Part shown: positions 6,839-50,841 of the stretch, piece after piece
How the letters are laid out: every line of letters begins with the position of its first letter
Numbering within the stretch: the stretch's first letter is position 1
Notes under the pieces: model-generated
Database searches by the model: none
Told to the model about the DNA's origin: nothing
What the model saw: the letters and a program-made list of their open reading frames with translations, nothing else
From: Methanotrichaceae archaeon
GTDB lineage: Archaea; Halobacteriota; Methanosarcinia; Methanotrichales; Methanotrichaceae
Direction of reading: 5' to 3'
NCBI GenBank assembly: GCA_963813075.1
Contig: CAWEXU010000027.1
Location: 1-58,590 of the forward strand
Length of the DNA stretch: 58,590 nt
Translations under genes and position numbers: made by a program

Positions 6839-7110
6839 GCTCTCCACCTGGGCAGCAATGGTAATGGGTTCTCTATCAAAGATCTCTAGTTATTGATCTA
6901 TCCGGTTATTCGCTGCTAATGCATAAATCCTCCTCATGACTTTTGGGCCCGTCCCCTGCCAATGGAGAAATGCTTCTTCAATCGTGATTTGCTTTTGGAA
7001 GCCCAACACTAAACCAACTAAAACCAATATCTCACAACCGATATATAGAAAGACGGCAATGCCAATATTAACATGGATTCATTTCCATTTGATTTATAGG
7101 AGATTTGTTT

Positions 7111-7620
7111 ATGGGAATAAAAGAGAGCTTTACCGATGAGGAATGGAGGGGGCTGGTCAGCCTTCCATATGCCGTCTCAATGGCCATTGTCCTGGCAGCA
7201 CCGTCATTGCTGGGCACATTTCATGAATCAAAGGCGCTGATCACTGAGCCCGCCAGGCTTGCCGCTTCCTCCAGCAGCGACCTGGTTGGCATACTCTCCG
7301 CTGAGGTCCAATCCAGAGGAAAAGAGCTGATCGATGAGCAGAAGGACCTGTTCAAAAAGGGCCAGGATGGCTACAGATCGATGACCATCGAGGCCAGCCG
7401 GTCAGCCGCCTCTGCTCTTTCCAAGGTCTCCCCGAAAGAGGCTGCTGCCTACAAGGAGTGGGTGCTCGCGATAGGGCAAAAGGTTGCAGAGGCTGCAAAA
7501 GAGAAGGGCGTGGCAGTCAGCGAACCGGAAAAAGCGCTCCTCAAAGAGGTCTCCGCCGCTCTTGGCCTGAGTGCGTCAATACCCCACCGGCTAAAGGATG
7601 GGGCTTGTAGCTATGGTTAG
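7111..7620 (+). CDS. Hypothetical helical protein; native stop codon displaced by the IS605-family insertion
   Basis: GGAG RBS and coherent ORF. Removing 7575-8441 restores CTG AGT GCA TAA, so the last 14 codons come from the element. Confidence 0.7.
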   Translation: MGIKESFTDEEWRGLVSLPYAVSMAIVLAAPSLLGTFHESKALITEPARLAASSSSDLVGILSAEVQSRGKELIDEQKDLFKKGQDGYRSMTIEASRSAASALSKVSPKEAAAYKEWVLAIGQKVAEAAKEKGVAVSEPEKALLKEVSAALGLSASIPHRLKDGACSYG

Positions 7621-7675
7621 TTACTGCTACGATTGGGCAGCAGCCTGCTAGGTAGCTTACTGAAGGTAGCGACTC
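7575..7675 (-). ncRNA. Putative TnpB omega/reRNA scaffold (3' part); guide would be the flank GCACTCAGGCCAAGAG...
   Basis: Position at the element right end with the subterminal hairpin; follows the established TnpB architecture. 5' boundary uncertain because of the deletion. Confidence 0.55.
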
Positions 7676-8326
7676 TTGAAGCTTTCTTTTAGCTGATCGA
7701 GTGCCTTTGGACTGAAGTTTGGATCTCAAATATTGATATTTGCCTTTCACAGCTTTAACTGGTCCAGATTGCCAGAACGTATTATCGCTACATACTGCTA
7801 TGTTATTGATCCCAAGATCTACGCCGATCCTCTTATCTCCAACAAGTGTTTCTGGATCGGGTTGCTCTACTTGAACATTGAGGTAGCAAGCATTCTTAGT
7901 TATCTTGAGTTGAGCATTCATGACTTTCCATGTAGCGTATTTCTGGTAATAGTCTGCTAACTGGAAGTCATATCGTAGTCTCCCAAAAATGGTTGTGAGC
8001 TTGCAGTATCCCGATTCCAAGAATACCTTCATGGTCCTAACGTCGAATCGAACTGCTCCGAAAGGATGCTTGAAAGGCTTAGTCTCGAATTTGAGCCTCT
8101 TGAGCATGTCGCTGGCTTGATCCCTTGCTGTTTGGATGAGGGCGGAAGGCAATGTAGAATACTTTTCTCGGAGATCTTTGTATGTAGCTTTGTTAAGTCT
8201 GGTCTTGTTGTAATCATGTGCCGCAAAGCCGTAGTCTATGACATCCTGGCAGGCGGCGTTCCAAAGCCGAGCTGTTTGGATGAGTTCATTTGATCGATCT
8301 AGCTTTATTTTGATGGTGCGGTACAT
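7675..8326 (-). pseudogene. tnpB: Truncated TnpB RNA-guided endonuclease
   Basis: MYRTIKIKL start, LPSALIQTARDQA, RuvC-I IGVDLGINNIA, SAKRKLQE; then joins the 3' tail directly, with no RuvC-II Glu segment, zinc finger or RuvC-III. Confidence 0.88.
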
Positions 8327-15809: not shown

Positions 15810-16646
15810 TCAGATGATCCCTTTTTCTATCAGGGCAGAACGCAATCTTTCAACCTCAGATTCCAGCTTTTCGAATCTTTGATCCAGATATCCTTTGAAA
15901 TCCTTTCTGGAGTCTTTTACCTCTTCTTTCAGCTCTTCTTCGACCTCCAGACTATCTCTCTGGAGCTGGATCATGCTGTCCATCTTGCCGCTCATCTCGC
16001 CCTGCGCCATGATCATAGTGTCCATCTTGCCGCTCATCTCGCCCTGCGCCATGATCATAGTGTCCATCTTGCCGCTCATCTCGCCCTGCGCCATGATCAT
16101 AGTGTCCATCTTTCCACCCAGGTTCCTGCTCATCTCACCCTGTGCCTGGATCATGGTGTCCATCTTTCCACCCAGGTTCCTGCTCATCTCACCCTGTGCC
16201 TGGATCATGGTGTCCATCTTTCCACCCAGGTTCCTGCTCATCTCACCCTGTGCCTGGATCATGGTGTCCATCTTTTGGCCTAAATTATCGTTCAATTTGT
16301 TCACGGCAGCAATCAGGTCTTTAAGATATACCGCAGCAGCATCCAGCCTGGAGTCGGTCTCGCCCTTTTCCACGAGCTTATAGAATTTTGCGAATTCCCC
16401 TTTTGGCTCTGAATACTCCATCTCAATGGCCGAGACATTGATCATGGTATTCTTGATATCAATGGCCTCTTCAAACCACTTCAGCTTTTCACTATCGCCT
16501 TCGGCCACTATCTTGACCCGGCCGTCATCCAGGTTCTCAACCGTGCCGGTCAATATCAGCGCTTTGGCAAGATCGACCATTCTGGCACGATATCCAACCT
16601 TTTGCACCGTACCTGAGACGTAGGCCACAAGCCTCTTTTTCATCAT
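15810..16646 (-). CDS. Acylphosphatase with a repeat-containing coiled-coil C-terminal extension
   Basis: VSGTVQKVGYR...GTVENLDDGRVKIVAEG with the catalytic Arg and Asn. Confidence 0.88.
   Translation of the reverse strand: MMKKRLVAYVSGTVQKVGYRARMVDLAKALILTGTVENLDDGRVKIVAEGDSEKLKWFEEAIDIKNTMINVSAIEMEYSEPKGEFAKFYKLVEKGETDSRLDAAAVYLKDLIAAVNKLNDNLGQKMDTMIQAQGEMSRNLGGKMDTMIQAQGEMSRNLGGKMDTMIQAQGEMSRNLGGKMDTMIMAQGEMSGKMDTMIMAQGEMSGKMDTMIMAQGEMSGKMDSMIQLQRDSLEVEEELKEEVKDSRKDFKGYLDQRFEKLESEVERLRSALIEKGII
15979..16266. repeat. Intragenic tandem repeats: 3 x 42 bp (15979-16104) and 3 x 54 bp (16105-16266)
   Basis: Perfect copies encoding MDTMIMAQGEMSGK and MDTMIQAQGEMSRNLGGK. Confidence 0.95.
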
Positions 16647-19368: not shown

Positions 19369-20900
19369 ATGAGGCCAATAGCGATAATAATCATGGACGG
19401 CTTCGGCATAAGCCCCATCCTGGATGCAAATGCCATTGCTCATGCCCGTAAACCCAACCTGGAGCGATTGTGGAAGGAATATCCCACCACCACCCTCAAG
19501 GCCTCCGGCCTGGCGGTGGGACTGCCCCGGGGCCAGATGGGAAACTCCGAGGTGGGGCACCTCAACCTGGGCGGGGGAAGGATCGTCTATCAGGAGCTGA
19601 CCAGGATCAGCCTGGCGGTGGAGAAGGGCACATTTGGGAGTAATCCCGTCTCTGCAGGAGGCGATGAAGCCGGGCCAAGAATGGAGGCAGAAAGCTTCAC
19701 CTGATCGGTCTTCTCTCCGACGGCGGTGTGCACAGCCACATCACTCACCTTTATGCCCTGCTGGAGATGGCAAAGTCCATGGACCTCTCCCGGGTATTTG
19801 TGCATGCCATTTTGGATGGCCGGGATGTGCCGCCCCGCAGCGCTCTTGGCTTTTTCCGGGATCTAGAAGAGAAGTTCATTCAGATAGGCACGGGCAGGAC
19901 GGCCACGGTGAGCGGCCGCTACTATACCATGGACAGGGACCGCCGCTGGGAGAGGGTAGAGAAGGCCTACCGCTGCCTGGTGTATGGCGAGGGTATGCGG
20001 GCGAAGAGCGCAGAAGAGGCGGTGCAGTCGGGGTATGACCGTGGGGAGAACGACGAGTTCATCCTGCCCACAGTGGTGGATGAAATGGGTTTGGTGGAGG
20101 ATGGGGATAGCATCATCTTCTTCAACTTCCGGCCGGACAGGGCGCGAGAGATAGCCCGCGCTTTTGTGGATCGGGATTTTTGCGAGTTTGCCACCAAATC
20201 GATCCGGGTCCATTACACCTGCATGACCCAGTATGATGCCACCCTGAACGCTCCAGTGGCCTTCCCGCCGGAGGACCTCACTGACACCTTAGGAGAGGTG
20301 GTCAGCCGGGCAAAATTGATGCAGTTGAGGATAGCGGAGACAGAGAAGTATGCTCATGTCACCTACTTTTTCAATGGGGGAAAGGAAGCGGTCAATCCGG
20401 GGGAGGATCGGGTGCTGATACCCTCGCCGAAAGTGGCAACCTACGACCTGCAGCCCGAGATGAGCGCCTATGAGGTCAGAGATGAGCTTCTTGCCCGTCT
20501 CGATTCCGGCCGGTATGATTTGGTCGTCCTCAATTTCGCCAATCCGGATATGGTCGGCCATACGGGCATCTTTGAGGCGGCGGTGAAGGCGGTGGAGGTG
20601 GTGGACGGCTGTGTGGGTGAGATTGTGGACCGGATACTGAGCCTGGGCGGAGCGGTCCTTCTCACCGCTGACCACGGCAATGCAGAGAAGATGAGGGATT
20701 CTGATACCGATCAGCCCCATACCGCCCATACCACCAATCCAGTGCCATTCACCTTAATCACCTCTGACCGGAAAAGCTACCCGCTTCGAGAGGACGGAAT
20801 TTTGGCTGACGTGGCACCGACAGTACTGCAGCTCATGCATATTCCCCAGCCCGAGGCCATGACCGGAAGGACTCTCATAAATCTCAGAAGCATTTTATAG
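19369..20900 (+). CDS. gpmI: 2,3-bisphosphoglycerate-independent phosphoglycerate mutase (frameshifted ~19650-19700)
   Basis: [52 protein letters not shown] across two frames. Confidence 0.95.
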
Positions 20901-25201: not shown

Positions 25202-25631
25202 TTGCTGATCAAGGAGTTTCAGAGTGGAAGGCAACTGTTGGCCAGGCTGGACCACGGCGAGGAGATAATCGGCCAGGTCATGTGCATCATAAGAGAGAAA
25301 GATATCCGGGCGGGCCAAGTTGAGCATCATCGGCGCCCTGGAGCAGGCGGAGATCGGCTACTACGACCAGGTCTCTCAGAAGTACCAGGGCATTCAGATC
25401 AACGAGCCGGTGGAGCTTGCCTCCTGCTCGGGCAATATCTCCCTCCTGAGAGGCCAGCCCTTTGCCCACGTTCATGCCGTCCTCTCCGGCATGAAGGGGA
25501 CAGTCTGGGCGGGGCACCTGACCTCGGGCCGGATCTTTGCCGCTGAGCTATATATCCAGGAGCTGACCGGACGGGATCTGATAAGATCTCCCGACTCCGT
25601 CACCGGGCTTAATCTGTGGAGAGAAGAGTGA
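25202..25631 (+). CDS. PPC/DUF296 domain protein (frameshift ~25320)
   Basis: [10 protein letters not shown], then in the next frame IIGAL...[10 protein letters not shown]...[10 protein letters not shown]...GHL. Confidence 0.88.
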
Positions 25632-28600
25632 ATAACCAGGATTATTTTCAGCTATTGCAGGATGGCCTTGGTGATGCCATGGCCGTAGCCAAAGAGGCTC
25701 GCAGCCGGGGGCTGGACCCCACTATTGATGTGGAGATACCCCTGGCGGTGGACCTGGCAGAGAGGGTGGAGAAGCTGATCGGCATCCCAGGCATTGCGGA
25801 GAGGATCAGGCATCATGAAGCGGAAGGATTGAGCCGGGAGGAGTCTGCGCTTGCCATTGGTATTGACTTCGCTGAGGGCCGGCTGGGAGCCGGCGCAAGC
25901 AAGATCGAGTCGGTGGAGAACGCCATCCGCACCTCGGTGGCCCTGCTCACCGAGGGGGTCGTCGCCGCTCCCATTGAGGGCATCGCCCGGGTGGACCTGG
26001 GAAAGAACGATGACGGCACCGAGTACCTCAAGGTCTACTATGCCGGGCCGATAAGGTCTGCCGGGGGCACAGCTCAGGCGCTCTCAGTTCTCGTTGCCGA
26101 CTATGTGAGGAGGAGCGTGGGTATCGCCCCCTGGAAGCCGCGCCCGGAGGAGGTGGAGCGCTATGTGGAGGAGATTGGCCTGTACAAGAGGGTGGCCGGT
26201 CTGCAGTACTCCCCCTCGGATGACGAGATCAGGACCATTGTGAGAAACTGCCCCATCTGCATAGACGGCGAGCCGACGGAAGAAGAGGAGGTCTCTGGCT
26301 ACCGGGACCTGGACAGAATAGAGACCAATCGGGTGCGAGGGGGTATCGCCCTGGTCTCGGCTGAGGGAATCGCCCTGAAGCGGCCCAAGCTCAAAAAGCA
26401 TGTCAGCAAGCTTGGCATCTCCGGCTGGGAGTGGCTGGACTCTCTGGCCAGCGGCAAGAAGGATGGCGGGGACTCAACTCCCAAGTTCCTCCGCGACCTT
26501 ATAGCGGGAAGGCCGGTGTTCTCTCATCCCTCCCGGCCTGGAGGCTTCAGGCTGCGCTACGGCCGGGCGAGGAATACCGGGCTTGCTGCTGCGGGAATCA
26601 ATCCGGCCAGCATGCTCCTTTTAGGGGAGTTCATGGCCGCCGGCACCCAGATCAAGGTGGAGCAGCCGGGCAAAGCGGCGGCGGTAGCGCCGGTCAGCTC
26701 GATTGAGGGGCCAACAGTGAGGCTGCTCAACGGGGATGTGGTCCGCTTTGACTCTGATCAGGATATACTGGAGTGGATGCCGATCACCTGCAAAGATCCC
26801 AAGACCATCCAGACCGCTCTCAAGGCCCATGTATCCAGGATCCTGGACCTGGGGGAGATCCTGATCAGCTATGGGGAGTTTTTGGAGAACAACCGGCCCC
26901 TGGCACCGGCCTCATATGCCTTTGAGTGGTGGGCGGCAGAGCTGCTAAAAGCGGGCGGCGACCCCGCGGGCTGCGAGTCTGTCAATGGCGAAGAGGCTAT
27001 TGCCCTGTCCAGAGAATATGGCGTTCCCCTTCATCCTGCTCATACCCACCTGTGGCATGACCTTTCCCTGGAGGATTACGAGCTATTGCAGGGAGGTTGC
27101 GGCGTCAAAGGGCATTATGGAGTCTGGACGGCTGATCCTCCCTCTGGAGGTCAAGGAGTCCTTGGAGACCCTGCTGGTGCTGCACAAAGTTCGAGAGGGA
27201 CGGATAATGATCGAGGACCCTCTGCCCTTCTTGCTGTGTCTGGGAATTGACGGGGAGGGTGGTTTATTGAAGAAGAGGGCCGGGGAGGCTGGGGGCCCGC
27301 CGGATGGGGGCAAACCGGTTGAGGGCGATCAGGCAGAGGACTCGACCCTGGCCAGGGTCAACCGCCTGGCAGGCATTGTGGTTCGAGCGCGTGCGCCCAC
27401 CCGCATCGGCGCCCGCATGGGCCGGCCTGAGAAGTCGGACAAGAGGCTGATGAGGCCGCCCCCTCATGTCCTCTTCCCGGCGGGGGAGGAGGGAGGCAAG
27501 GGCCGATCCATTCAGGAGGCGGCAAAGCACTCCACCAACAGCTCCTCCGGGATCATCAATGTGCAGATCGAGCGGCGGGTTTGCAAGAGCTGCGGAAAGG
27601 AGGGCTTTGCCTTCAATTGCGTGTGCGGCAGCCATACTGAGAAGAAGAGGGTCTGCCCCAAATGCAATATCCCCGCTCCCGAAAAGTGCCCCAAATGCGG
27701 CCAGGAGAGCAATGCGGTAGCTGAGATGCAGATCGATGTCAAAAAACTCTACCATCAGGCTTTAGAGAATCTGGGGGAGAGGGAGCCCGATTCTCTGAAA
27801 GGGGTTTTGGGCCTCTCCTCCCGCGATAAGACCCCCGAGCCCCTGGAGAAGGGAATCCTGCGGGCCAAGCAGGGGATCAACATCTTCAAGGACGGCACAG
27901 TGAGGTACGACCTCACCGACCTGCCTCTCACCCATTTCCGGCCGGACGAGATCGGCACCAGCCCCCTGGTTTTGCAGAGCCTGGGCTATGCCGTGGATAT
28001 GCATGGCGATCCTTTAACCCGTCCGGATCAGGTCTGCGAGCTGAGGATCCAGGATATCATCCTATCGAGGGATGCGGGCGAGTACCTCTTGAAGGTATCC
28101 TGGTTTGTGGACGAGCTGCTGGCCAGGTTCTATCACCTGCAGCCCTTCTACAATGCCCAGACCCCTCAGGACCTGATCGGAAAGCTGATGGTGGGCCTGG
28201 CCCCCCATACCTCTGCGGGCGTTCTCTGCCGGCTGATAGGCTACAGCCCGGCCTCGGCGGGGTTTGGCCATCCGTTCTTTCATGCCGCCAAACGGAGGAA
28301 CTGCGATGGGGATGAGGACTGCGTGATGCTGCTCATGGATGCCCTGATCAACTTCTCCATGTCCTATCTTCCAGCAAAGCGGGGTGGGAAGATGGACGCC
28401 TGCCTGGTCATGACCACCATTCTCAATCCGGCTGAGGTGGACAAAGAGGCTCATAACCTGGATCTGACCCCGGTCTATCCCCTGGAGTTCTACGAGGCCA
28501 CCCTCAACCAACACCAACCCCAAAGACCTGGAGGGGAGGTTTGATCTGGTCTCTAAAAGGCTGGGCACCGACCAGCAGTATGAGGGGTTCAACTTCAGCC

Positions 28601-29055
28601 ATGCCACCACGGACATCGCTGCCGGGCCGAAGAACAGCGCCTACAAGACCCTGGAGACCATGGTCGATAAGATGGATGCCCAGCTGGAGCTGGCGCGGAT
28701 GATCCGGGCGGTGGACGAGCAGGACGTAGCTGAAAGGGTGATCAACTCTCATTTCCTGCCCGACCTGATAGGCAATCTGCATGCCTTCTCCAAGCAGAAG
28801 GTCAGGTGCGTGAAGTGCGGGGCCAAGTATAGAAGGCCTCCACTGAAGGAGACCTGCCCCAAATGTGGCGGCAGGATGATTCTCACTGTGCACGAGGGCA
28901 GCGTGAGGAAGTATCTGGAGGTCTCAATTAAGGTGGCAGAGGAGTATGGGGTGAGCAGCTACACCAAGCAGAGGCTGCAGCTTTTGAAGATGGAGATCGA
29001 CTCTCTCTTCAAGAACGAGAAGGCCAGGCAGACGGGCCTTGCGGATTTCATGTAG
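25628..29055 (+). CDS. polC: DNA polymerase D large subunit DP2 (indels ~27090 and ~28515; no intein seen)
   Basis: [38 protein letters not shown], catalytic [11 protein letters not shown]-terminal RCVKC...CPKCGG zinc finger. Confidence 0.97.
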
Positions 29056-29567: not shown

Positions 29568-30315
29568 TTGAAGCCCACAGTGGCCCGCTATGCCCTGGCC
29601 GATCAGGCCAAGGCCACTTCTCACCCAGACCATCCTCCTGGCGGAGAGGGTCCACCGGGCGCTGGTGGAGCTATCCGATGGCTCGGCGGTTTTCACCGGC
29701 TGCGACGAGCTGCACCGGCCCTTGCGAGGCCACGAGCATGCCCATATCTTCTGCGAGTCAAACCCCGGCGGCGGGGGCGAGATCACCAACATCAGCATCT
29801 ATGCTCCCAGAGGCTTTGACTCCGGGGAAGAAGAGGCCTTGGAGAGATTGGCGGAGATCTATGATGGTCAGGGGGCAAGCACCAGTCTGGTCTTTCTGGG
29901 CTTTGCCCGGCCAGCGGACCTGGTCGGCATAAGCCCGCTATTCGCCAGGTCGAGGGTCTGGCTCTCTCATACCCCCTTCCTTCCCACCCGCCATCCCAAG
30001 GCCACAAGAGCGGGGGTGCCGAAGTTCGACTGCACCGGCTTTCAGATCGGCAGCCCGGAGCACGAACTCTTGCGGCTGCTGGGGCTGGCAGGCTTTCCTG
30101 AGCCTGATATGATGGAGAGGGTGGACCACACCAGGTTGGGCGAAAGGGAGGTTCCCTGGGATGCCTTTGTGCGCCGGAGGGAGGGGGATGAGAGGAGGCC
30201 GGCGGCGAATGGGGAAGGGTACGGCTTTCGCATCGTATTTCCCGAGGCGGTGCAGGGGCCGGTGGCGGTGGGATATGGGGGGCATTTTGGGATGGGGGGA
30301 TTTGAGGGTGAATAA
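29568..30315 (+). CDS. csb2: Stand-alone Cas6-like C-terminal domain of type I-G Csb2 (1-bp indel ~29610)
   Basis: GGAGGT RBS before TTG; KPTVARYAL...LAERVHRALV, GHEHAHIF, SRVWLSHTPFLPTRHPK and the terminal Gly-rich loop FPEAVQGPVAVGYGGHFGMGGF. Confidence 0.85.
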
Positions 30316-30399
30316 GTTAAAACAAGATGTGTAATATCATAAATTTTTAGTGAAGTTAGGAGCGATAGGCTGATATAGGATTAAAGCAGATTATTAATT

Positions 30400-30484
30400 T
30401 AATCCGCAGCTAAAAAAAAGCCGCGGCCCAATTGAAACAAATATAATGGGCGATCAAGTCTAAAAGTCGTCCATGTTTTTTTTT
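30400..30484 (+). CRISPR. Orphan CRISPR repeat (type I-G-like) plus one spacer-like guide and T9 terminator (crRNA-like RNA)
   Basis: 30400-30438 TAATCCGCAGCTAAAAAAAAGCCGCGGCCCAATTGAAAC has a CCGC.GCT/AGC.GCGG stem and the canonical ATTGAAAC handle; followed by 37 unique nt and T9 (30476-30484). No second repeat. Confidence 0.8.
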
Positions 30485-30643
30485 ATTATAATAGATAGAT
30501 TTGTACCTGGCTACAACTGGATAGTATTCATTATAATTAATATATTTCAGTATTTTTTTTATGCCTGTAACCATACAAAATTTTCATATACTTTGAGCGA
30601 TATCTTACCATAGAGGGATACACAAAGTCCTCTAGGTGGTAAG

Positions 30644-30811
30644 ATGAAAATAAATAGACTTAGAACGGGAATAGATAACGACTTTGAGACTCGATCGGCC
30701 ATCAGCAAATGCCTAACTAGGCTAATATTTTATGCGCTGAGCGCTATCGGGATACATCTAATTGCGCAGTCCATTGAGATAAATGTGAATGTGTGGATAG
30801 TGATGCATTAA
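30644..30811 (+). CDS. Putative 55-aa small protein with hydrophobic C-terminus; contains the guide target
   Basis: AGGTGGT RBS at 30634-30640; MKINRLRTGIDNDFETRSAISKCLTRLIFYALSAIGIHLIAQSIEINVNVWIVMH; below the ORF-track cutoff; no recognised family. Confidence 0.5.
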   Translation: MKINRLRTGIDNDFETRSAISKCLTRLIFYALSAIGIHLIAQSIEINVNVWIVMH

Positions 30812-30840
30812 ATGAGGGTTAATGCATCATATATTTTTTT
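30801..30840 (+). terminator. Hairpin plus T-tract after the small ORF
   Basis: Perfect 11-bp inverted repeat TGATGCATTAA (30801-30811) / TTAATGCATCA (30819-30829), then T7 (30834-30840). Confidence 0.6.
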
Positions 30841-30927
30841 AGTTATACATAACATTTTGTTAACTACTCTGGATTTAATTCAACTACCTGAATCATATAA
30901 AATGCTAGCAATCAAAGGTGAGCAATT

Positions 30928-32217
30928 ATGAATCGCAGTATTCCAGACTTTCCAGGAAAACCTATTAATGTAGATCCTCATCCAAATAAGATTAAAAGGG
31001 TTTACAGCATTCATGTTATAACGCCGATCTTTAGTGGTGGTGTCAGAGCTAACGAGAATGATCCTATTACACTCATACGCCCATCGAGCATTCGCGGCCA
31101 TCTTAGGTTCTTATGGCGGGCGACAAGAGGAGCAAATTGCACCACAGTCGCCGAGCTTCGGCAACGCGAGGGCGAGATCTGGGGAACGACCGATAATCCC
31201 AGCCAGGTGATCGTTGAAGCCTCAGTTACATCAAAAGGGTCAACATATCCATGTGCGTACATCCCTGATGGAAAAAACTTTGCCAGATTCAGGGAAAGCC
31301 ATCCAGGATATGCACTTTTTCCATTTCAGGGAAATAAAAAAGAAGGAATTCCAATTGCCAATTGCACCTCGAAAGTCTCTTTTGATTTGAAGCTGATCTA
31401 TCCACAGAGCCTATCAGATGACTTGGAGGCAGCTGTCTGGGCTTGGGTGAACTTCGGAGGTATAGGCGCTCGCACCAGAAGGGGCGGCGGGTCACTGTAT
31501 TGCCAGGAGCTTGCGCCGCCGGATGCATCCAGCATCGCATCTTGGTATAAAGAACGTTTAAAGAGCTTAGGCATCATTCTGTCCCATCCCAAACAATGGC
31601 CTATCTTGCCAGATAGCCTGCTTGTTAAGAGCAGCAACAATGCAATGCAGGCATGGAATGATGTTGTGACCCTGATGCAGACATTCAGGCAGGGCCAGAA
31701 TGTAGGCAGAAATCCTGGCAAGGCACCGAATCGCCCAGGACGATCACGATGGCCTGAACCAGAGACTATCAGAAGCGCGACTTCTCAGCGGGATCCAAAG
31801 CACTCCAGAATGTCGGGAATTCCCAATGATGCTTTCCCCAGAGCTGAGCTTGGTCTGCCTATAGTGTTCCATTTTAAGGACTACAATGATCCTAAAGACA
31901 CTGAGCTTTACCCAATAGTGGATGGTGAGGAGAAGACAAGAATGGCAAGTCCATTGATATTGAGACCGATAGTCTGTCAAAATGGAGAGGTGCAGCAGAT
32001 GATCCTTTGCTTAAAGGCACCATCACCCAATGAAGTCGTTCTAAAAAAAGCACCTGAAAATCCAAAGTTCAAGAAAATTCGAGATCCTATGCTCAATGCA
32101 TATCCACAATCCCCTCTAGGAAGTCCAGGGCCCGGACTGCCTGCAAGATCTCGATCCGGTTCAGCAATTGAAGGATTCCTCGCCTTTGCTGAGGAGAATA
32201 AATTCCGGGTGGTTTAA
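30928..32217 (+). CDS. cmr1: Type III-B RAMP protein Cmr1
   Basis: VITPIFSGGV, RPSSIRGHLRFLWRA, FGGIGARTRRGGGSL, RAELGLPIVF, RMASPLILRP. Confidence 0.95.
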   Translation: MNRSIPDFPGKPINVDPHPNKIKRVYSIHVITPIFSGGVRANENDPITLIRPSSIRGHLRFLWRATRGANCTTVAELRQREGEIWGTTDNPSQVIVEASVTSKGSTYPCAYIPDGKNFARFRESHPGYALFPFQGNKKEGIPIANCTSKVSFDLKLIYPQSLSDDLEAAVWAWVNFGGIGARTRRGGGSLYCQELAPPDASSIASWYKERLKSLGIILSHPKQWPILPDSLLVKSSNNAMQAWNDVVTLMQTFRQGQNVGRNPGKAPNRPGRSRWPEPETIRSATSQRDPKHSRMSGIPNDAFPRAELGLPIVFHFKDYNDPKDTELYPIVDGEEKTRMASPLILRPIVCQNGEVQQMILCLKAPSPNEVVLKKAPENPKFKKIRDPMLNAYPQSPLGSPGPGLPARSRSGSAIEGFLAFAEENKFRVV

Positions 32218-32218
32218 C

Positions 32219-34213
32219 TTGGCGTCATATCTATATGTTCTCTCAATCGGCCCTGTCCAGGACTTCATTAAAAATGCCAGGAGGACAAGGGACCTCTGGT
32301 TTGGCTCACACCTGCTTTCAGAGATCAGCAAAGCTGCAGCAAGAGAAGTATCTGGACATGGTGAGCTCATATTTCCCGCATTGAATGCAGGAAATAAAGA
32401 ACTGGAACCTGACAGTAAACCTGGAGCCTTTAATGTCTCTAATATAATACTTGCCAAACTGGACGAAAATCCCATCAAAATTAACGAACTGGCCAAGGAA
32501 GCAGCTCGCAAAGAATGGATGCGCTACGCCGACGGTGCGAAAGATCTGGCAGATTATCTGGCCCCAGGATTTGTCAGTGATGAGAGGTGGTCGGAGCAGA
32601 TTCACGATGTAATAGAGTTTTATTCAGCTTGGGTGCCTTTCAGTGATGATCACGAAGGAAATTACAAAGAATCTCGAATAAGGTTGATGCGTCTTTTGGA
32701 TGGTAGAAAGGCTATAAGGAACTTCGATCAGCCAAAGAAGCATCCAGGAATCCCAAAGTGCTCCCTTGATGGAGCTAGAGATAGCATCATTGAAAAAGAT
32801 AAGGAGATTCTCAAGGAGAACGAGCTAGCTCTAAAGATGCGGCTCCAGGCAGGGGAGCAACTCTGTGCCATTGGACTCACCAAGAGGCTTGGTCGACGTA
32901 AGAAAAGTGATGACGAAGATTTGTCTTCGGTGAGACTTGAGGCGTTTCCATCTGTCGTGCGTGTATCACTCGATCCATGGATTCGAGGAGTTCATAACTC
33001 AGATGCAGGCGCTAGGATTCTTCTAGATGACATCGGGAAGATATGCGAGGATAATACCAAAGCTAATGTTATGAGCGGTGGAATCGGAAATGGCTATATT
33101 GCCCAGGGAACCGGCTGTATGAGCAACGGAAAACGGCGTTATCCCGAGTTTCCTTTCGATGGTCAGGTTTTGCATCTTCCGAGAATTGATAGGATGATGA
33201 AAGCCAGAGAAGAGAAGAACCGTGATAGTTATAATAGTTGGGAAGCTTTTCTCTCTGATACAGATATAAGCGATCTTAAAACCATAAAAAGGATGGTGGA
33301 AAGACTACAGCGGAGCGGAGAGACAAAGGATGGAGAGAGATTTTTCGGATTGGGTGAGCCAGGTCGCTATTTAGCGATTCTAGTCGCAGATGGCGATCGC
33401 ATGGGCAAAATAATTTCATACATAGAGGAGAGACCAGAGCATAGAAGCCTCTCGAAAAAGTTAGCTGAATTCGCCAAGGAAGCCAGAAAGATTGTTGATA
33501 AAGATAATCATGGTTGTTTAATATATTCGGGGGGAGATGATGTTCTGGCTTTTGTGCCATTGGATTTCTGTCTTCAAGCTGCTAGGGATCTGCATGACGG
33601 TTTTGGAAAATATTTGGAGAAATTCTCTTACAATGAAGGAGACAAGACTATCAAACCAAGCCTTTCAGTAGGTATCGCCATTGGCCATTCAATGGAACCT
33701 CTTGAAGATCTGCTAAGCGCAGGAAGAGACGCGGAAGAGGCAGCAAAAAAGGGAACAGTACCTGATGATGAGAGAAACGGCCTTGCAGTCCATCTCTATC
33801 CCAGAAGTGGCACACCTATCAAGATTCGCGAAAGATGGAATCCAGAGGGGGAAATCAGCCTCGATAAGCGTCTCCTCAAGTGGGCGGAGATGCATTGTAT
33901 GGATATGCTGCCGGATGGCGCCGCTTACGACATGCATGAGCTAGCAGAGGATTACAAAGATTGGAAAGGAACCACTAAAGCTCAGCTTGAAAGTCTCATT
34001 ATTGCAGATAGTTGGAGACTTCTAAAGCGCAAAAAGGCAGGCAGCATAAGTTCTGAGGCTCTCAAATTAGATCATATCAAAGACCTACTAGCAGGGGTCG
34101 ATTCTTATGAAAAGATCAAAATGAGATCAGATGAGCTTATTTTGTCTCGACAGATAGCATCTGCGATGAAGAAGGCGAAATGGAATATTCAAAAAGAAAA
34201 GGAAATCAATTAG
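32219..34213 (+). CDS. cas10: Cas10/Cmr2 without HD nuclease domain, Palm motif intact
   Basis: Starts directly at SIGPVQDFIKNARRTRDLWFGSHLLS; ADGDRMGK and YSGGDDVLAF. Confidence 0.96.
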   Translation: MASYLYVLSIGPVQDFIKNARRTRDLWFGSHLLSEISKAAAREVSGHGELIFPALNAGNKELEPDSKPGAFNVSNIILAKLDENPIKINELAKEAARKEWMRYADGAKDLADYLAPGFVSDERWSEQIHDVIEFYSAWVPFSDDHEGNYKESRIRLMRLLDGRKAIRNFDQPKKHPGIPKCSLDGARDSIIEKDKEILKENELALKMRLQAGEQLCAIGLTKRLGRRKKSDDEDLSSVRLEAFPSVVRVSLDPWIRGVHNSDAGARILLDDIGKICEDNTKANVMSGGIGNGYIAQGTGCMSNGKRRYPEFPFDGQVLHLPRIDRMMKAREEKNRDSYNSWEAFLSDTDISDLKTIKRMVERLQRSGETKDGERFFGLGEPGRYLAILVADGDRMGKIISYIEERPEHRSLSKKLAEFAKEARKIVDKDNHGCLIYSGGDDVLAFVPLDFCLQAARDLHDGFGKYLEKFSYNEGDKTIKPSLSVGIAIGHSMEPLEDLLSAGRDAEEAAKKGTVPDDERNGLAVHLYPRSGTPIKIRERWNPEGEISLDKRLLKWAEMHCMDMLPDGAAYDMHELAEDYKDWKGTTKAQLESLIIADSWRLLKRKKAGSISSEALKLDHIKDLLAGVDSYEKIKMRSDELILSRQIASAMKKAKWNIQKEKEIN

Positions 34214-34224
34214 GTGGTCCTATA

Positions 34225-35484
34225 ATGGAGACATACCTGACAATAACACCCTACGATCCGATAATTGCTAGAGACGGTCGTCCATTTGGATTCGGACAAA
34301 GGCGAATGCATTCCTTAAATTGGCCTTATCCATCGGTCCTGGCAGGCTCTTTGAGAACTATAATTGGAAAAGAGATGGGGACAGACTTCAGGGATCCAAA
34401 ATTTTTAGAGGATTTAAAGAAAATTATTATCTCTGGGCCTCTGCCTTTGTGTAGTGATAAGCTATTCTTTCCAGCTCCTAAGGATCTTATTGTGCGAGAA
34501 GAGGGGAATAAGCGAGATGCATTTGCACTTCGACCGATGAAGTTGAATAAAAATAAGGATGACTCGGATGAAGGCTGTGATCTGCCGAATAGAGATCTTC
34601 TTCCTACATTGCTTCCTATGGATATAGAGGATTTTAAGCCAGCCGCAGTGCCCTCATTCTGGTCAGCTGAAATGATGATTCAGTGGCTAATGAATCCTTT
34701 TGGAAAAGATTTTCGGGCACCACCTGATCCTGAAAAGGCTAACTCTCATACGGATTTTCTTCCATCTATGCCGAAAGATTCGAGAGTTCATGTTAAGATC
34801 TCTCCAGAGCTAGGTTCAGTTGAAGAATCTGATGGCGAAGGTATGCTTTTTATGACTGTGGGACTGGATCTATCCCAAAAGGAAAAGCCTCAAGGAATAA
34901 AGCTTGCTGCAAGGTGCGAAGCTGAAAAAATCCTTGGAGAGAAATTGCAAAATATCAATTCCTTCGGCACATTTGGTGGAGAGAGGCGACTTGCTCACTG
35001 GAAAACGGAAGCGAAGGATAAGATGCAGAAGATTTGGAGCTTCCCAGAGGAGATTAAGCAGGCTCTTGAGGATCAAAAAGAGAAATCTGGTAGACAACTG
35101 CTTCGCATGATATTGGTGACCCCTGCTATATTCTCTGATGGTTGGCTTCCAGGATGGATTAATTGCCATGGTGGTTCGCTTGTTGGTTCCCCTCCTCTCG
35201 AAAATCGAGCTAATTTGGAATTGAGATTGATATCGGCATCTATTGATCGCTGGAAGCCTATTTCCGGCTGGAGTCCTGAACGCCTCAAAGACGGCCCTAA
35301 ACCTGGCCCAAAACCAATTCGAAGGCTTGTTGCTGCGGGTTCGGTTTATTTCTTTGAAGTTTTATCTGGGAATGCAGAAGATATAGTCAAAGAACTCTGG
35401 CTGAGGTCGGTATGTGATGATGATCAGGATAGGCGAGATGGATTTGGACTTGCGGTCTGGGGAATATGGGATTATGCTGATTGA
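34225..35484 (+). CDS. cmr3: Type III-B protein Cmr3
   Basis: PYDPIIARDGRPF, WPYPSVLAGSLRT, FGGERRLA, LVTPAIF, AGSVYFF, DGFGLAVWG. Confidence 0.95.
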   Translation: METYLTITPYDPIIARDGRPFGFGQRRMHSLNWPYPSVLAGSLRTIIGKEMGTDFRDPKFLEDLKKIIISGPLPLCSDKLFFPAPKDLIVREEGNKRDAFALRPMKLNKNKDDSDEGCDLPNRDLLPTLLPMDIEDFKPAAVPSFWSAEMMIQWLMNPFGKDFRAPPDPEKANSHTDFLPSMPKDSRVHVKISPELGSVEESDGEGMLFMTVGLDLSQKEKPQGIKLAARCEAEKILGEKLQNINSFGTFGGERRLAHWKTEAKDKMQKIWSFPEEIKQALEDQKEKSGRQLLRMILVTPAIFSDGWLPGWINCHGGSLVGSPPLENRANLELRLISASIDRWKPISGWSPERLKDGPKPGPKPIRRLVAAGSVYFFEVLSGNAEDIVKELWLRSVCDDDQDRRDGFGLAVWGIWDYAD

Positions 35485-35516
35485 GATGAATATAGATATG
35501 TGAAGAGGTGTGATAT

Positions 35517-36437
35517 TTGACAACTAAAATATATTGGCTGGAGGCTATAACGCCTCTGCATGTTGGGACGGGTCGAGGAGTAGGATTCATAGATCTTCCA
35601 ATTATCAGGGAAAAGGTGACTGGTTGGCCTCTTGTGCCAGGATCGTCAGTCAAAGGTGTAATTAGGGACTACTTCGATCAAGAGAAGAGCAAAAAAACGG
35701 ATGAAGAGAAAAAAGCCTTTGAGAAGCTTATTAATGCGGCCTTCGGAAAGCCAGACGATGATAAAGGCAACGCTAACTCAGGCAGCCTTGTCTTTACAGA
35801 TGCCAGAATTGTCTGCCTTCCCATTCGCAGCCTTTATGGCACCTTTGCCTACATAACAAGCCGTCTAGTTCTTGAGAGGATGAAAAGAGATCTTAGAGAT
35901 GCTGGATACACAGATGTACCAGAAGTGCCTGACGCAAGCGAGACCGAAGTGCTTCTTGCGCAAGAATCCAAATTAGCTGCGGATGGCAAGGTTTTCTTTG
36001 AGGATCTAGACTTCACAGCCAGAAAAGGTAATGATCTTGTTCAAAAATGGGCAGGTTTGCTTGCAAGAGCAATCTTTTCTGGAGATGTTAAATGGCAAGG
36101 CATCTTTCAGGAGCGCTTTGCAGTAGTATCGGATAATAGCTTCAACTTCCTGTCTGAGACTGGGACTGAGGTTGCGGCCCATATCAGAATTAAGGATGAA
36201 ACAAAGACTGTCGACGAGGGTGCCCTATGGTATGAGGAGGCTTTGCCGGTGGAGACGATCCTGGCTGGTATTGTCTGGTGTGATAGGGTCTATGGCTGCA
36301 ATGGCGGCGATCAGAAGACGCTTGTTGAAAAGATGATGAGCACATTTTGTGGTGGTGACTCAGCGCGGGAGCTGCAGATCGGCGGAAAGGCGACTGTTGG
36401 CAAAGGCAGAGCGAGATGCCAATTCACGAGGGGTTGA
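35517..36437 (+). CDS. cmr4: Type III-B backbone RNase Cmr4
   Basis: TPLHVGTG, catalytic Asp in FIDLPIIRE, PGSSVKG, ALWYEEALP, QIGGKATVGKG. Confidence 0.96.
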   Translation: MTTKIYWLEAITPLHVGTGRGVGFIDLPIIREKVTGWPLVPGSSVKGVIRDYFDQEKSKKTDEEKKAFEKLINAAFGKPDDDKGNANSGSLVFTDARIVCLPIRSLYGTFAYITSRLVLERMKRDLRDAGYTDVPEVPDASETEVLLAQESKLAADGKVFFEDLDFTARKGNDLVQKWAGLLARAIFSGDVKWQGIFQERFAVVSDNSFNFLSETGTEVAAHIRIKDETKTVDEGALWYEEALPVETILAGIVWCDRVYGCNGGDQKTLVEKMMSTFCGGDSARELQIGGKATVGKGRARCQFTRG

Positions 36438-36438
36438 A

Positions 36439-36783
36439 ATGGCAGGAAATACTCTCCAGACCAGACAGCAGAAAAGAGCGCAGCTTGCTTATAGCTGTGT
36501 TTCATCTCGCTTGAAAGGGGATGAGAAGTACGGACAAATTGCCAAAAAATTTCCTGCTCTTGTTCACAATTGCGGCCTGGCTCAATCCATTGCTTTTGTG
36601 CAGGCAAAGGAGGGAGCAACAGGTGATGCCTACATATCCCATCTAACCCAGGTGATGGGCGAAACGGGAGATCTTGGGAGCACCAGTAGAAGTGCCGATA
36701 TGATGAAGTATCAGAGGCTAACCCGCGAGGCAATCGAGTCAGCTACATGGATTAAACGCTACTCTGAAGCCCTTCTGGAGTGA
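36439..36783 (+). CDS. cmr5: Type III-B small subunit Cmr5
   Basis: TRQQKRAQLAY, KKFPALVHNCGLAQSIAF, YQRLTREA...WIKRYSEA. Confidence 0.93.
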   Translation: MAGNTLQTRQQKRAQLAYSCVSSRLKGDEKYGQIAKKFPALVHNCGLAQSIAFVQAKEGATGDAYISHLTQVMGETGDLGSTSRSADMMKYQRLTREAIESATWIKRYSEALLE

Positions 36784-36791
36784 GACTGACC

Positions 36792-37933
36792 ATGGCAGAT
36801 GCTTGTAGATCGGTTATCTCTGATTGGTGGGCACTAGATAAAGCTAGCGAGAATGCGGGGCTATTGAGAGATAGGTTTCTGCGAATAGCTGTTAAAGACA
36901 AAAAGAATCACCCTCAAGCGCGAGACGATCTTTTCGAGGCGATGTGCCAGTCTCTAGTTAATTCTCAAGAGATTTACATAATAGCTTATCAAAAACAAGA
37001 GTCTGCAATTAAAAATTTGAAATCCAAAGGATTCTTCAACACAGATGGCAGGATGATCATCGGCCTCGGGGGAGAGAATGTTCTGGAGACAGGTCTCACA
37101 TTAAATCATACTTATGGGACACCGATGATCCCAGGAACAGCGCTTAAGGGACTGGCGGCACACTACTGCCATAAGGCCTGGGGGGAAGCAGATGAGCGGT
37201 TCAAGATCGGCGGTGAGTACCATCGGGCCATCTTCGGGACCACTGAATATTCAGGGCACCTCATATTCCATGATGCCTGGATCACGCCTGAGAGCTTGAT
37301 CGGATCGCTCCAGCCTGATGTGATGACGCCACACCATGGTGATTACTACTCTGATGAGAAGGGCCTGACTCCACCGACAGACTTCGATGATCCAAATCCC
37401 GTAACATTCCTCTCAGTAGTGGGAAAATTTTTGATTGCAGTCTCATGTGATGTTCCGGGACCTGTTGGTGACGAATGGGCCGAGAGGGTCTTCGATCTGC
37501 TCACTGATGCGCTCAGAGAATGGGGGATCGGTGGCAAGACCAATGCGGGTTATGGGAGACTCATCCTAGAGAATCCAGAAGAGATGAGCGAAAAGGCCGC
37601 CGAACCAACGATTGTATCTTCGAACTCCGATTTACAGAAATCACGGAAACAAATCTCATCAGTTGCGAAAAAATTAAAATATAAAAAGGGCGATACTGTT
37701 GAGGTTACCAGAGTTGCCGATCCTAAGGAGAAACGAGGTGCTTCCTATTTCATGGCTGATGATGGCATCGGTGGACTTGTAGTTTTGGAACACCGCCTTC
37801 TGCTGAGATCGGTGAGAAAGTCCTCTTGGAAATAAATGGAGTAATGGAAAAAGAGGGTTTATACAATTTTGCTGCCGTCGGCGCAAAGAGAGAATCTGCT
37901 CATCAGACAAAGGGCAAGAGAGGACGAAGATGA
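36792..37933 (+). CDS. cmr6: Type III-B RAMP protein Cmr6 with C-terminal extension (probable indel ~37787; end approximate)
   Basis: RMIIGLG, ETGLTLNHTYGTPMIPGTALKG, DVMTPHH..YY, DDPNPVTFL, GIGGKTNAGYG. Confidence 0.93.
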
Positions 37934-39242
37934 GGATCTTATTATGCCTTATTAGCGACCAGCATGTGCCGAACCTATTGACTGTTCATAAGGTAATGCC
38001 GGATCTTCTTATTTTGGTTGTAACACCAGATATGAAGCGCAGGAATGTGGCCACTAATTTCATGGATGCTCTGGATATAGGTGGATTGAGTTACCTTCAT
38101 GAAAATGATCGGCACGAAATAATCCCTCTCGAAGACGAGAACTCTATGCCTTCAGCCTTCAAGGTCTTTACAGATATCACTTCAAAGTATCCAGAAGCCG
38201 AGTGGATTATTAATATCACTGGTGGGACTAAGATAATGAGCATCGCTGCATTTGAATTCTTCAAAGATCGAAACAATTGCACAATGCTTTATGTGCCAAT
38301 TAATGATCAAACCAAAGCTCTGAAATTCACTGGAAAAAAACGGCTCAATCCATTCGACGAAAAGAATGCTGCGATCCAACGTGAGGCATTTTCTATTGCC
38401 AATAAAACTGAGCAATTAGATCATGAGGTCTCAATCAGTCAATTCCTGGCAGGATACGGATTTAAGCTATCTAAAGATGCAAAAGATATAGAAGAGAATG
38501 AGAAGCTTGCTTTGAAGTGGTTCGAAACCTCAGTATACCTTGTGGAAAATTATGATAAAAAAGATGTGATTGAGTTCTTGCGACATTTCACAGAAGTCTC
38601 ACATAACAGAAATGGTCGCGATAACGGCCTAAGTATCCATGAATCCGACAAGATAGATTTAAAAGACGAGCGTTTGATTGAGAACCTAACTCGGAATATT
38701 TCCTTCAATTGGCTTAAAAGATTCCCGGATAACAGGGTGTTTAGAGTCTAACGAGGTTGAATTTCTAACTGGAGGCTGGCTCGAAGTTTTCATTTGGGCC
38801 TTACTCTATCATCATTCGGATAATCTGGGGGGGTCAGAGAGGTACATCTAAATCTTGAAATAGCAAGCAAAGGAATAATTGAACCAAGGCCTAAGAATGA
38901 ATGGGACGTCACTTTTATGCAGGATCAGTCCCTTTGCTTTATTGAGTGCAAGACGGGAAAACAAAAGAAAAAGAAAGGAGAAGACATTCTCTATAAAGTG
39001 GAGGCGATCAAGAAGCATTTAGGTGCTCTGAGAGTTAAATATGTTATCTTGCGACAACCTCATCTAATGTTATCGATAAGGATACCGGCAAGATATATGA
39101 GCAATTATCAACACGATGCGCGCTCTACAACTGCAAGATTATTGATGGGGAGAAGCTTCAGAAGATCGCTAGAATGCACCTTGATCCAGGCAGACTCGGG
39201 AGCTCAGAGATAGTTGCATTAATAGATCAGATTCTCTTATAA
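37930..39242 (+). CDS. CARF + PD-(D/E)xK nuclease effector, Card1/Can2 (DUF1887) family; several indels
   Basis: CARF region LISDQHVPNL...INITGGTKIMSIAA; later frames give EFLTGGWLEVF, NEWDVTF and FIECKTG, ending IDQILL*. Confidence 0.85.
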
Positions 39243-39268
39243 TGAGCCCTGGGAAAGAAGGTTTGCAC

Positions 39269-39547
39269 TTGACCGCACCTATCATCTACTCCATCGCCGT
39301 CTCCTCGCCCATCACCCCCGCCGAGCCGCTCCCGCCTCTGCCCGACATCCCCCGCGGCTCGCTGGTGATCGTGGAGGGCCGGGCTCCCATCTGGCGCTAT
39401 GGAATGGCACTGCACAAATTGCACGCCTCGCCCGCTGCAGCCATCGCTTTCTACGATCCCCGCCTGGGGGCGGTGGTGGTGGCCACCCACAGCCAGGAGT
39501 GGCAGGTGGGCCAGGTGGTGGATGTGACGCTGCCGGTGGAGAAATAG
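39269..39547 (+). CDS. csx3: CRISPR ring nuclease Csx3/Crn3
   Basis: VIVEGRAPIWRYGMALH...IAFYDPRLGAVVVATHS signature. Confidence 0.92.
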   Translation: MTAPIIYSIAVSSPITPAEPLPPLPDIPRGSLVIVEGRAPIWRYGMALHKLHASPAAAIAFYDPRLGAVVVATHSQEWQVGQVVDVTLPVEK

Positions 39548-50786: not shown

Positions 50787-50841
50787 GATGAAACGGAGAT
50801 GAAACAAAGATGAAACGGAGATGAAACAAAGATGAAACAGA
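50787..50841. repeat. Five tandem 11-bp units GATGAAACRRA between convergent genes
   Basis: Directly visible; units alternate GGA and AAA endings, last unit AGA. Confidence 0.9.

Follow-up and report, generated by a model that had tools for sequence, protein, structure and literature searches.

A lone CRISPR repeat and guide before an archaeal cmr operon: a candidate toxin-antitoxin run by Cmr at the RNA level

Can a single CRISPR repeat outside any array provide a type III effector with a guide against one of the cell's own RNAs? This question is raised by a 58,590-nt stretch of DNA (the window), which is the whole of contig CAWEXU010000027.1 in the 2.71-Mb assembly of a Methanotrichaceae archaeon. 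Here a diverged solitary repeat, a guide and a small open reading frame (ORF) form a cassette between a Cas6-like gene and a type III-B cmr operon (Table 1). The first-pass annotation had proposed that the guide serves the adjacent Cmr complex and that a self RNA is silenced without synthesis of cyclic oligoadenylate (cOA). Comparative evidence supports this proposal. Our results indicate that the guide-target pair is real, conserved and co-evolving. We consider it quite probable that the small-ORF RNA is silenced by guided Cmr, as a toxin-antitoxin, by autoregulation or both, and we lean, slightly beyond an even chance, towards a CRISPR-run toxin-antitoxin at the RNA level, CrePA-like, in which Cmr would cut the small-ORF mRNA without making cOA. 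Below, G000 denotes this genome, and G019, G036, G068, G069, G081 and G083 denote relatives.

Recomputation of the locus reproduced the repeat, guide, T9 run and match of the first pass (30402-30484 against 30678-30702). With guide position n facing window position 30710-n, guide positions 8-32 paired with 30702-30678 at 22 of 25 nucleotides, and the mismatches fell exactly at positions 12, 18 and 24 (P = 0.0017 for all 3 mismatches landing on the 4 sixth positions among 25). On the flanks, positions 1-5, 7 and 33-35 were unpaired and position 6 was paired. The site was the best in the genome (runner-up, 18/25), and none of 2000 shuffled guides scored as high as 22 within the 452 nt that follow the guide (mean 14.8, maximum 19). 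An assembly artefact was ruled out by four independent metagenome contigs nearly identical to the window, all of which kept the mismatch register: L065 and L067 carried the same guide and target, and L064 and L066 had one extra mismatch at position 16. The shift of register by polishing that the first pass had feared was thus not seen.

Table 1. Features of the cassette and its surroundings in the window.
Feature	Position	Strand	Remarks
Stand-alone Cas6-like gene (C-terminal half of Csb2)	29590-30315	+	5' end frameshifted here
Promoter-like motif, putative promoter of guide RNA	30364-30378	+	about 25 nt 5' of repeat
Solitary diverged CRISPR repeat	30402-30438	+	hairpin, 4-nt gap, 8-nt handle
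Handle	30431-30438	+	ATTGAAAC; last 8 nt of lone repeat
Guide	30439-30475	+	8-32 antisense to small-ORF mRNA, gaps at 12, 18 and 24; 1-5 and 7 unpaired
T9 run, putative terminator of guide RNA	30476-30484	+	
BRE/TATA-like element, putative archaeal promoter of small ORF	30577-30593	+	
5' leader hairpin	30612-30633	+	
Ribosome-binding site	30635-30640	+	
Small ORF, candidate toxin	30644-30811	+	55 codons (55 aa); basic N-terminus, hydrophobic segment from residue 23
Target site	30678-30702	+	small-ORF nucleotides +35 to +59
Terminator-like hairpin and T-run	30800-30840	+	behind small ORF
cmr1-cmr6 operon (type III-B)	30928-37835	+	Cas10 with GGDD, no evident HD domain; Cmr4 with Asp26
Card1-like CARF nuclease gene	37930-39213	+	fragmented here; whole (417 aa) in G019
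Csx3/Crn3 ring nuclease gene	39242-39547	+	

The relatives surveyed comprised 105 genomes of the family, 19 of which hold a close Cmr1, giving 20 loci. The repeat-guide-small-ORF cassette was found before cmr1 in 6 of these 20 related III-B loci (G000, G019, G036, G068, G069 and G083), always as three fixed parts in a fixed order. The six are species-level versions from two genera, G083 belonging to another genus, and the Cmr1 proteins of the cassette-bearing species are 47-80% identical to that of this genome. Two groups of guides were distinguished. In group A (G000, G036, G019 and G068) the guide aims at +35 to +59 of an ORF of 55-58 aa; in group B (G069 and G083) it aims at -22 to +2 of an ORF of 29-31 aa, over the ribosome-binding site and start codon. 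Guides of the two groups cross-matched at only 7-10 of 25 positions, and no guide fitted a foreign target better than its own (own scores of 22, 19, 23, 22, 19 and 22 of 25). Compensatory columns amounted to 6 of 21 in each guide group, 12 in total. A chance inverted repeat was ruled out by shuffling, as 1 of 2000 shuffled guides equalled the score of G036, 3 of 2000 equalled that of G069 and none equalled those of the other four. Complementarity is therefore conserved across six species, where the first pass had allowed that there might be none.

The unpaired positions of each guide, scored over positions 1-33, were 1-5, 7, 12, 18, 24 and 33 in G000; 1, 4-7, 9, 12, 18, 24 and 33 in G036 (with G-U pairs at 11 and 27); 1, 2, 4, 5, 12, 24 and 33 in G019 (G-U at 6); 2-5, 7, 18, 24, 25 and 33 in G068; 1-5, 10-12, 24, 25 and 33 in G069 (G-U at 18); and 1-7, 12 and 24 in G083 (G-U at 21). 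Across the six species, cells without a Watson-Crick pair numbered 15 of 24 at positions 12, 18, 24 and 30 versus 8 of 126 elsewhere in 8-32, three of the latter being G-U; positions 9, 15, 21 and 27, taken as a control, had 3 such cells in 24. The pooled Fisher value of 2e-9 is overstated, since the six cassettes are kin falling into two guide groups; the per-species values ranged from 0.0017 to 0.057. An origin of the periodic mismatches in codon wobble was ruled out: they sit on first codon positions, and positions 9, 15, 21 and 27, which share the codon position of the sixths in group A, are mostly paired. Outside 8-32, positions 1-5 were paired in 4 of 30 cells, with at most 2 of 5 in any species, and positions 33-38 in 6 of 36 cells, the pairing ending at 32/33 in 6/6. 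The covariation that the first pass had predicted for related III-B loci was thus borne out; its stricter rule, that mismatches are confined to multiples of six, was overstated, as they are enriched there and also occur elsewhere, and position 30 is paired in all six.

Gaps at every sixth position indicate a Cas7 backbone, of type I or type III. The genes adjacent to the cassette were cmr1-6 in all cassette loci and never those of type I Cascade or Cas12a. Asp26 of the window's Cmr4 aligned with Asp26 of a solved Cmr4, so the catalytic Asp is intact as the first pass had stated, and so is the Cas10 GGDD. The GGDD was present in 7/7 loci checked, and the Cmr4 Asp in 4/4 loci whose contig reaches Cmr4; the Card1-like and Csx3 genes were found in the same four. 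In TtCmr, segment-1 mismatches keep target cleavage and abolish cOA, Cas10 is activated through nt 1-7 with the exception of 6, and in the 40-nt complex nt 17-32 form the seed (PMC8376896). In the HD-less VmeCmr, a single segment-1 mismatch led to loss of the cyclic triadenylate (cA3) output (PMC8682760). In the six cassettes, guide positions 17-32 were paired with sense-strand RNA, with 2 true mismatches and 2 G-U pairs at non-sixth positions, while the Cas10-activating positions 1-5 and 7 were paired in 6 of 36 cells. By analogy, this pattern, open at 1-5 and 7 and closed at 8-32, fits a guide that would cut without signalling, and the silence of Cas10 is deduced from Cmr rules of other organisms. 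Pairing of the handle with an antitag, a candidate brake on Cas10, was not seen: handle positions -4 to -2 were unpaired in 5/6 and partly paired in G069.

The lone repeat was found to belong to the same family as the repeats of the genome's own arrays, a comparison suggested in the first pass, and it sits outside an array. Alignment of the six lone repeats and three array repeats revealed that an 8-pair hairpin, then 4 nt, then the handle are kept, with both-sided changes in 2 of the 8 hairpin pairs; the G000 copy fails to form 2 of the 8 aligned pairs and has a longer loop. The C-terminal domain of Csb2 cleaves 4 nt 3' of the hairpin and leaves an 8-nt handle (PMC9638904), and this identity of geometry suggests Csb2-like processing of the lone repeat. 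The Cas6-like gene matched positions 252-487 of 492 in the TIGR02165 profile, above the cut-off, and was whole in the near-identical contigs L064-L067 (ORFs of 255-290 aa). A Csb2-like Cas6 gene was present in 5/5 genomes searched and in G068, and this enzyme likely processes the repeat family in question. The promoter-like motif before the repeat was conserved across 7 aligned cassettes and differed from 5 array leaders, and a T-run followed the guide in 6/6 cassettes. The 3' end of the guide folds back on guide positions 8-16, forming a hairpin before the T-run. In G000, G019 and G036 this self-hairpin (window 30446-30474) makes one sequence both guide and terminator; in the three relatives G068, G069 and G083, the hairpin preceding the T-run is separate from the guide or partly overlaps it.

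The first pass had rightly taken the target to be a self RNA; that this RNA is the coding sequence of a 55-codon ORF had escaped it. The small ORF is open in 6/6 cassettes with a conserved ribosome-binding site, and the other two plus frames contain 4-11 stops in 5/5 sequences. Its peptide reaches a 19-residue hydropathy peak of 1.5-2.1 across the cassettes (1.74 in the window). The BRE/TATA-like element (BRE, B recognition element) is conserved in G000, G036 and G019 and looser in the remaining cassettes, and the leader hairpin is preserved with different letters in the same three. The terminator-like hairpin behind the ORF is the sole such site within 30250-31000 (shuffles, mean 0.3), and similar hairpins lie behind the small ORF in G036 and G019. 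That the guide aims into the coding region of a conserved small ORF, which possesses a promoter, ribosome-binding site and terminator of its own, tilts the choice to a toxin-antitoxin. In a protein search for the peptide, 7 of 46 candidates were found, all close kin of group A and without genomic context, and the best Atlas score of 0.81 is a lead only. Rfam gave nothing above the gathering cut-off.

The peptide profile matched at E<=2.6e-6 in exactly the 6 cassette genomes among the 105, and 5 further matches (E 0.02-0.04) lay in long unrelated frames. This co-occurrence suggests that repeat-guide and peptide are gained or lost together. On the Cmr1 tree (23 rows) the cassette is patchy, with 5 changes and no clustering (213 of 500 shuffles were as low): G081, with a Cmr1 85% identical, lacks it, and G068, with a Cmr1 47% identical, carries a group A version. 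Such a spread suggests that the cassette was gained, lost or moved as a unit, and it is as expected for an accessory addiction cassette. Outside the Methanotrichaceae, none was found in 20 cmr1 loci (26 of 27 loci were scanned; L097, which has no upstream DNA, was excluded). A class-wide scan of 60 regions, comprising 57 new ones, 2 known positives (both recovered) and 1 type I locus, with three contig-end fragments left outside, found none in the 57 further cmr1 regions; 6 other scan hits had no repeat hairpin. These scans recognise a cassette by a handle-like motif together with an almost perfect match. A first version missed G083 and the target of G069, so that diverged cassettes may escape such scans. 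The promoter-plus-repeat pattern occurred 12 times in the 105 genomes: 5 were known cassettes, and of the 7 others, 6 that were checked lie in arrays and 1 in the C7 array of G000. In viral contigs no cassette was found; 2 peptide matches were short chance likenesses without a start, and 4 repeat-pattern matches all lacked a hairpin or target.

Taken together, the following course of events can be proposed. The lone repeat and guide would be transcribed from their own promoter, and the Csb2-like Cas6 would cut the repeat, leaving the 8-nt handle. The RNA may then enter the adjacent Cmr and be shortened to about 40 nt, the handle plus 32, a length suggested by the end of pairing at 32/33 in all six. 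Its 3' seed would bind the small-ORF mRNA, in the early coding sequence in four species and at the ribosome-binding site and start codon in two, and by the published Cmr rules Cmr4 would cut this mRNA at 6-nt steps. Since guide positions 1-5 and 7 are unpaired, the same rules predict that no cOA is made and that the Card1-like nuclease stays off. By analogy with CreTA and CrePA, if Cmr were lost or blocked by an anti-CRISPR, the peptide would be made and harm the cell; the cell would thereby be forced to keep the III-B operon, and infections that disable it would be aborted. The toxin-antitoxin is favoured because the repeat-guide strictly co-occurs with a hydrophobic ORF, group B guides aim at the start and the spread is patchy. 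In its wider form, the proposal is a natural, dedicated type III circuit resembling RNA interference (RNAi), in which a single host-encoded guide has evolved to split Cmr4 slicing from Cas10 signalling and restrains a peptide toxin, possibly along with the cmr operon. Its target sites would have been placed independently at least twice, and the cassette would have moved between III-B loci; we regard this proposal as likely.

Several observations weigh against this interpretation. Mismatches also occur off the sixth positions (position 9 in G036; 10, 11 and 25 in G069; 25 in G068; 16 in L064/L066), and position 30 is paired in 6/6. In three species the self-hairpin of the guide involves position 12 as well, which gives the mismatch there a second possible reason. 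Pairing of the 5' segment was not below chance, so what is observed is an absence of pairing and not selection against it. Comparison between species gave the small ORF a dN/dS ratio (non-synonymous to synonymous substitution rates) of only 0.42-0.70, and 2 non-synonymous and 0 synonymous codons separate the closest pair, suggesting modest selection on the peptide. The peptide had no relative in Pfam, NCBIfam or Atlas and no likeness to known toxins. Guide processing, target cleavage and peptide toxicity are all three inferred.

Assembled RNA contigs also bear on the matter. They came from 24 runs (12-15% shared words), 4 of which were compared with the locus, and derive from relatives at about 90% identity; transcript ends, strand and level cannot be read from such contigs. 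Contigs of two studies (X18 and X22) begin at 30627, in the 5' leader, and run into cmr1, one of them for 7401 nt; two DNA-like runs, unlike X18 and X22, reach further upstream. These contigs are a weak hint against a separate toxin-antitoxin unit and for the main rival, in which the cmr operon mRNA begins with the small ORF and Cmr would cleave this message for itself close to the 5' end, a negative autoregulation amounting to CreR at the RNA level with the peptide a harmless leader or helper. The missing contig cover over the guide in X18 and X22 carries no weight. The rival also agrees with the alignment, in which the stretch from the small ORF to cmr1 shows no evident conserved TATA-like element, and with G019 and G036, where no csb2 lies upstream and the cassette promoter may drive the operon. 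On the other hand, a hairpin and T-run close the small ORF, contigs cannot prove a single transcript, the guides of G069 and G083 lie precisely over the ribosome-binding site and the peptide's start (-22 to +2), and the hydrophobic peptide is retained in 6/6 cassettes. Autoregulation is hence unlikely as the whole explanation, at a little over one chance in five, and it can coexist with the toxin-antitoxin.

A plain antisense antitoxin of CRISPR origin, or a Cmr- or Csm-bound block of translation without cutting, is improbable. The guide-target duplex is predicted at -29 to -40 kcal/mol and would need no protein, the targets lie at or near the ORF start, and G000 also has a Csm3 gene. However, plain antisense leaves the gaps at 12, 18 and 24, the kept handle and hairpin and the fixed place before cmr1 unexplained, and given the sixth-position pattern a Cas-independent antisense RNA is unlikely. 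Of 5 genomes tested, G000 alone gave a Csm3 match above the cut-off, and the Asp26 of Cmr4 is intact.

Repression of transcription by a type I Cascade encoded elsewhere, which would bind DNA through the guide as in CreTA, CreR and CrePA, is more doubtful still. Type I backbones likewise flip every sixth base (PMC8376896), 5 of the 6 cassette genomes have a type I system, and the three bases at the would-be protospacer-adjacent motif (PAM) in group A are GCA, GCA, GTA and GCA. Yet type I regulators make PAM-proximal matches to promoters (10.64898/2026.06.02.729485), and no such match beside a cognate PAM was found in the cassettes: the PAM-proximal seed was unpaired in 6/6, and the flank, GAA and AGC in group B, was not shared by all six. 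Nor was promoter DNA the target, which lies in coding sequence in group A and always on the sense strand of a transcribed, translated region; in G000 the TATA-like element is 85 nt further upstream. A second, seed-paired DNA target was not found in the genome of G000, sites with the full 5' seed reaching at most 11/25 in positions 8-32. Moreover, the type I subtype varies between genomes (I-D in G000 and G069, I-B in G019 and G083, I-G with a second type I locus in G068) while Cmr is always adjacent. The complete genome of G019 holds only a I-B system, with a repeat of another family, and no Csm3 above the cut-off. No type I system was found in G036, a weak blank given that the genome is 81% complete and that the PF01905 search missed the Cas7 of G083. 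Least credible of all is the view that the cassette is the decaying, now functionless remnant of an old self-targeting spacer that avoided autoimmunity through mutations in its 5' part. In its favour, 14 of the 20 related loci have no cassette, and mini-arrays near 10-14% of type III systems, lacking targets and conservation, were judged degraded repeats and likely non-functional (Shmakov et al., 10.1101/2023.03.03.530964); the 12 compensatory columns, the own-target specificity and the promoter, hairpin and ORF kept across species with Cmr1 47-80% identical speak against it.

Other features of these genomes were observed alongside. The III-B and III-A loci of G000 contain stand-alone C-terminal halves of Csb2 together with I-G-like repeats (window 29590-30315; C7:18404-19149; C13:42029-42858), and no I-G Cascade was found alongside them in G000. 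A type I-D module with cas6, cas10d and a csc2-like gene lies at C31:23320-28694 of G000; no cas3 above the cut-off and no array were found on this contig. Just upstream of csb2 in L064-L067 is a HepT-family RNase gene with an apparent nucleotidyltransferase partner; the HepT gene adjoins csb2 or cmr1 in many III-B loci (also L041, L048 and L049), including cassette-free ones. Downstream of the cmr operon in G019 (L069:4477-7625) are several partial csx3 copies and a csb2 fragment. An ORF of 493-495 aa interrupts CRISPR arrays in G000 (C7:518-2005, C7:108430-109917 and C10:94992-96479) and G019 (L068:4053-5534 and 6307-7788). The three G000 copies share the same left end, directly behind the last base of a repeat. 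The copy in G019, an IS110-family RNA-guided transposase, interrupts an array whose repeats are of a different family; the ORF looks like an IS110 element targeting CRISPR repeats. In the window, the genes for iPGM, DP2 and the Card1-like protein appear frameshifted or split (19369-20900, 25616-29055 and 37930-39213). Since DP2 polymerase is essential and is fragmented here, and the Card1-like gene is whole in G019, indel errors in the assembly are probable. The window also contains a 54-nt coding tandem repeat (15968-16329) and an 11-nt tandem repeat (50787-50841).

If the proposal is true, the cassette would be the first natural, dedicated RNAi-like circuit of type III CRISPR. It would likewise be the first addiction module, or anti-anti-CRISPR, serving a type III system, and its peptide would represent a new small toxin family in methanogens important for anaerobic digesters. 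Type III stand-alone repeats were dismissed as debris in the one systematic survey (10.1101/2023.03.03.530964). Six versions of the cassette supply a natural design rule, to pair 8-32 and leave 1-7 open. Purposeful regulation of host mRNAs by type III systems has been named as an open question (10.1101/2024.09.02.610847), and a named guide, a named target and predicted cut sites make this question testable with reconstituted Cmr.

The published CRISPR-run regulators and toxin-antitoxins that we found all act on promoter DNA via type I or V-A effectors. No type III CRISPR RNA (crRNA)-like regulator or toxin-antitoxin was found in the literature searched, which consisted mostly of open texts and excluded survey supplements that may list such loci; the accessible text of 10.1101/2024.10.29.618823 makes no mention of type III, Cmr or Csm. 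For one mini-array, a target has been shown upstream of cmr1 in a III-C system that neighbours a I-B system, with the effector left open (10.1101/2023.03.03.530964). CrePA, made of the CreA guide and the CreP protein toxin (type I-F, Acinetobacter), likewise has a degenerate repeat and one guide inside a cas locus, a small ORF alongside, a partial match and a CRISPR effector as silencer, and there CreA matches promoter DNA beside a PAM so that Cascade blocks transcription (10.1101/2024.01.05.574328). The present cassette, unlike CrePA, has a single repeat closed by a T-run and a match to mRNA with no PAM and an unpaired 5' segment, beside an RNA-cutting Cmr. From its sequence, the cassette thus resembles CrePA in its apparent working, yet it lacks three defining traits: a PAM-proximal match, a promoter target and a type I or Cas12a effector.

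CreTA (type I-B in haloarchaea, I-F in Pseudomonas) shares the addiction logic, the diverged repeat and the patchy placement before effector genes (PMC12737573; 10.64898/2026.06.02.729485), whereas the guides of our cassettes aim at the coding sequence or ribosome-binding site of a peptide ORF. CreR, regulatory mini-arrays and CRISIS also combine a lone repeat with a guide whose target lies immediately upstream of cas effector genes, with possible autoregulation (10.1101/2023.03.03.530964; 10.1101/2024.12.27.630466; PMC12737573), but they belong to types I and V-A and act on promoters (PMC12737573). Type I toxin-antitoxins, too, pair a short hydrophobic peptide with an RNA antisense near the toxin mRNA start (PMC12737573); here the putative antitoxin, which is coupled to a cmr operon, has the build of a crRNA, with hairpin, handle and gaps at sixth positions. 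Finally, in engineered type III knock-down in Sulfolobales, Cmr silences host mRNA post-transcriptionally with artificial guides (PMC7951960), whereas the guide of the cassette would be natural and dedicated.
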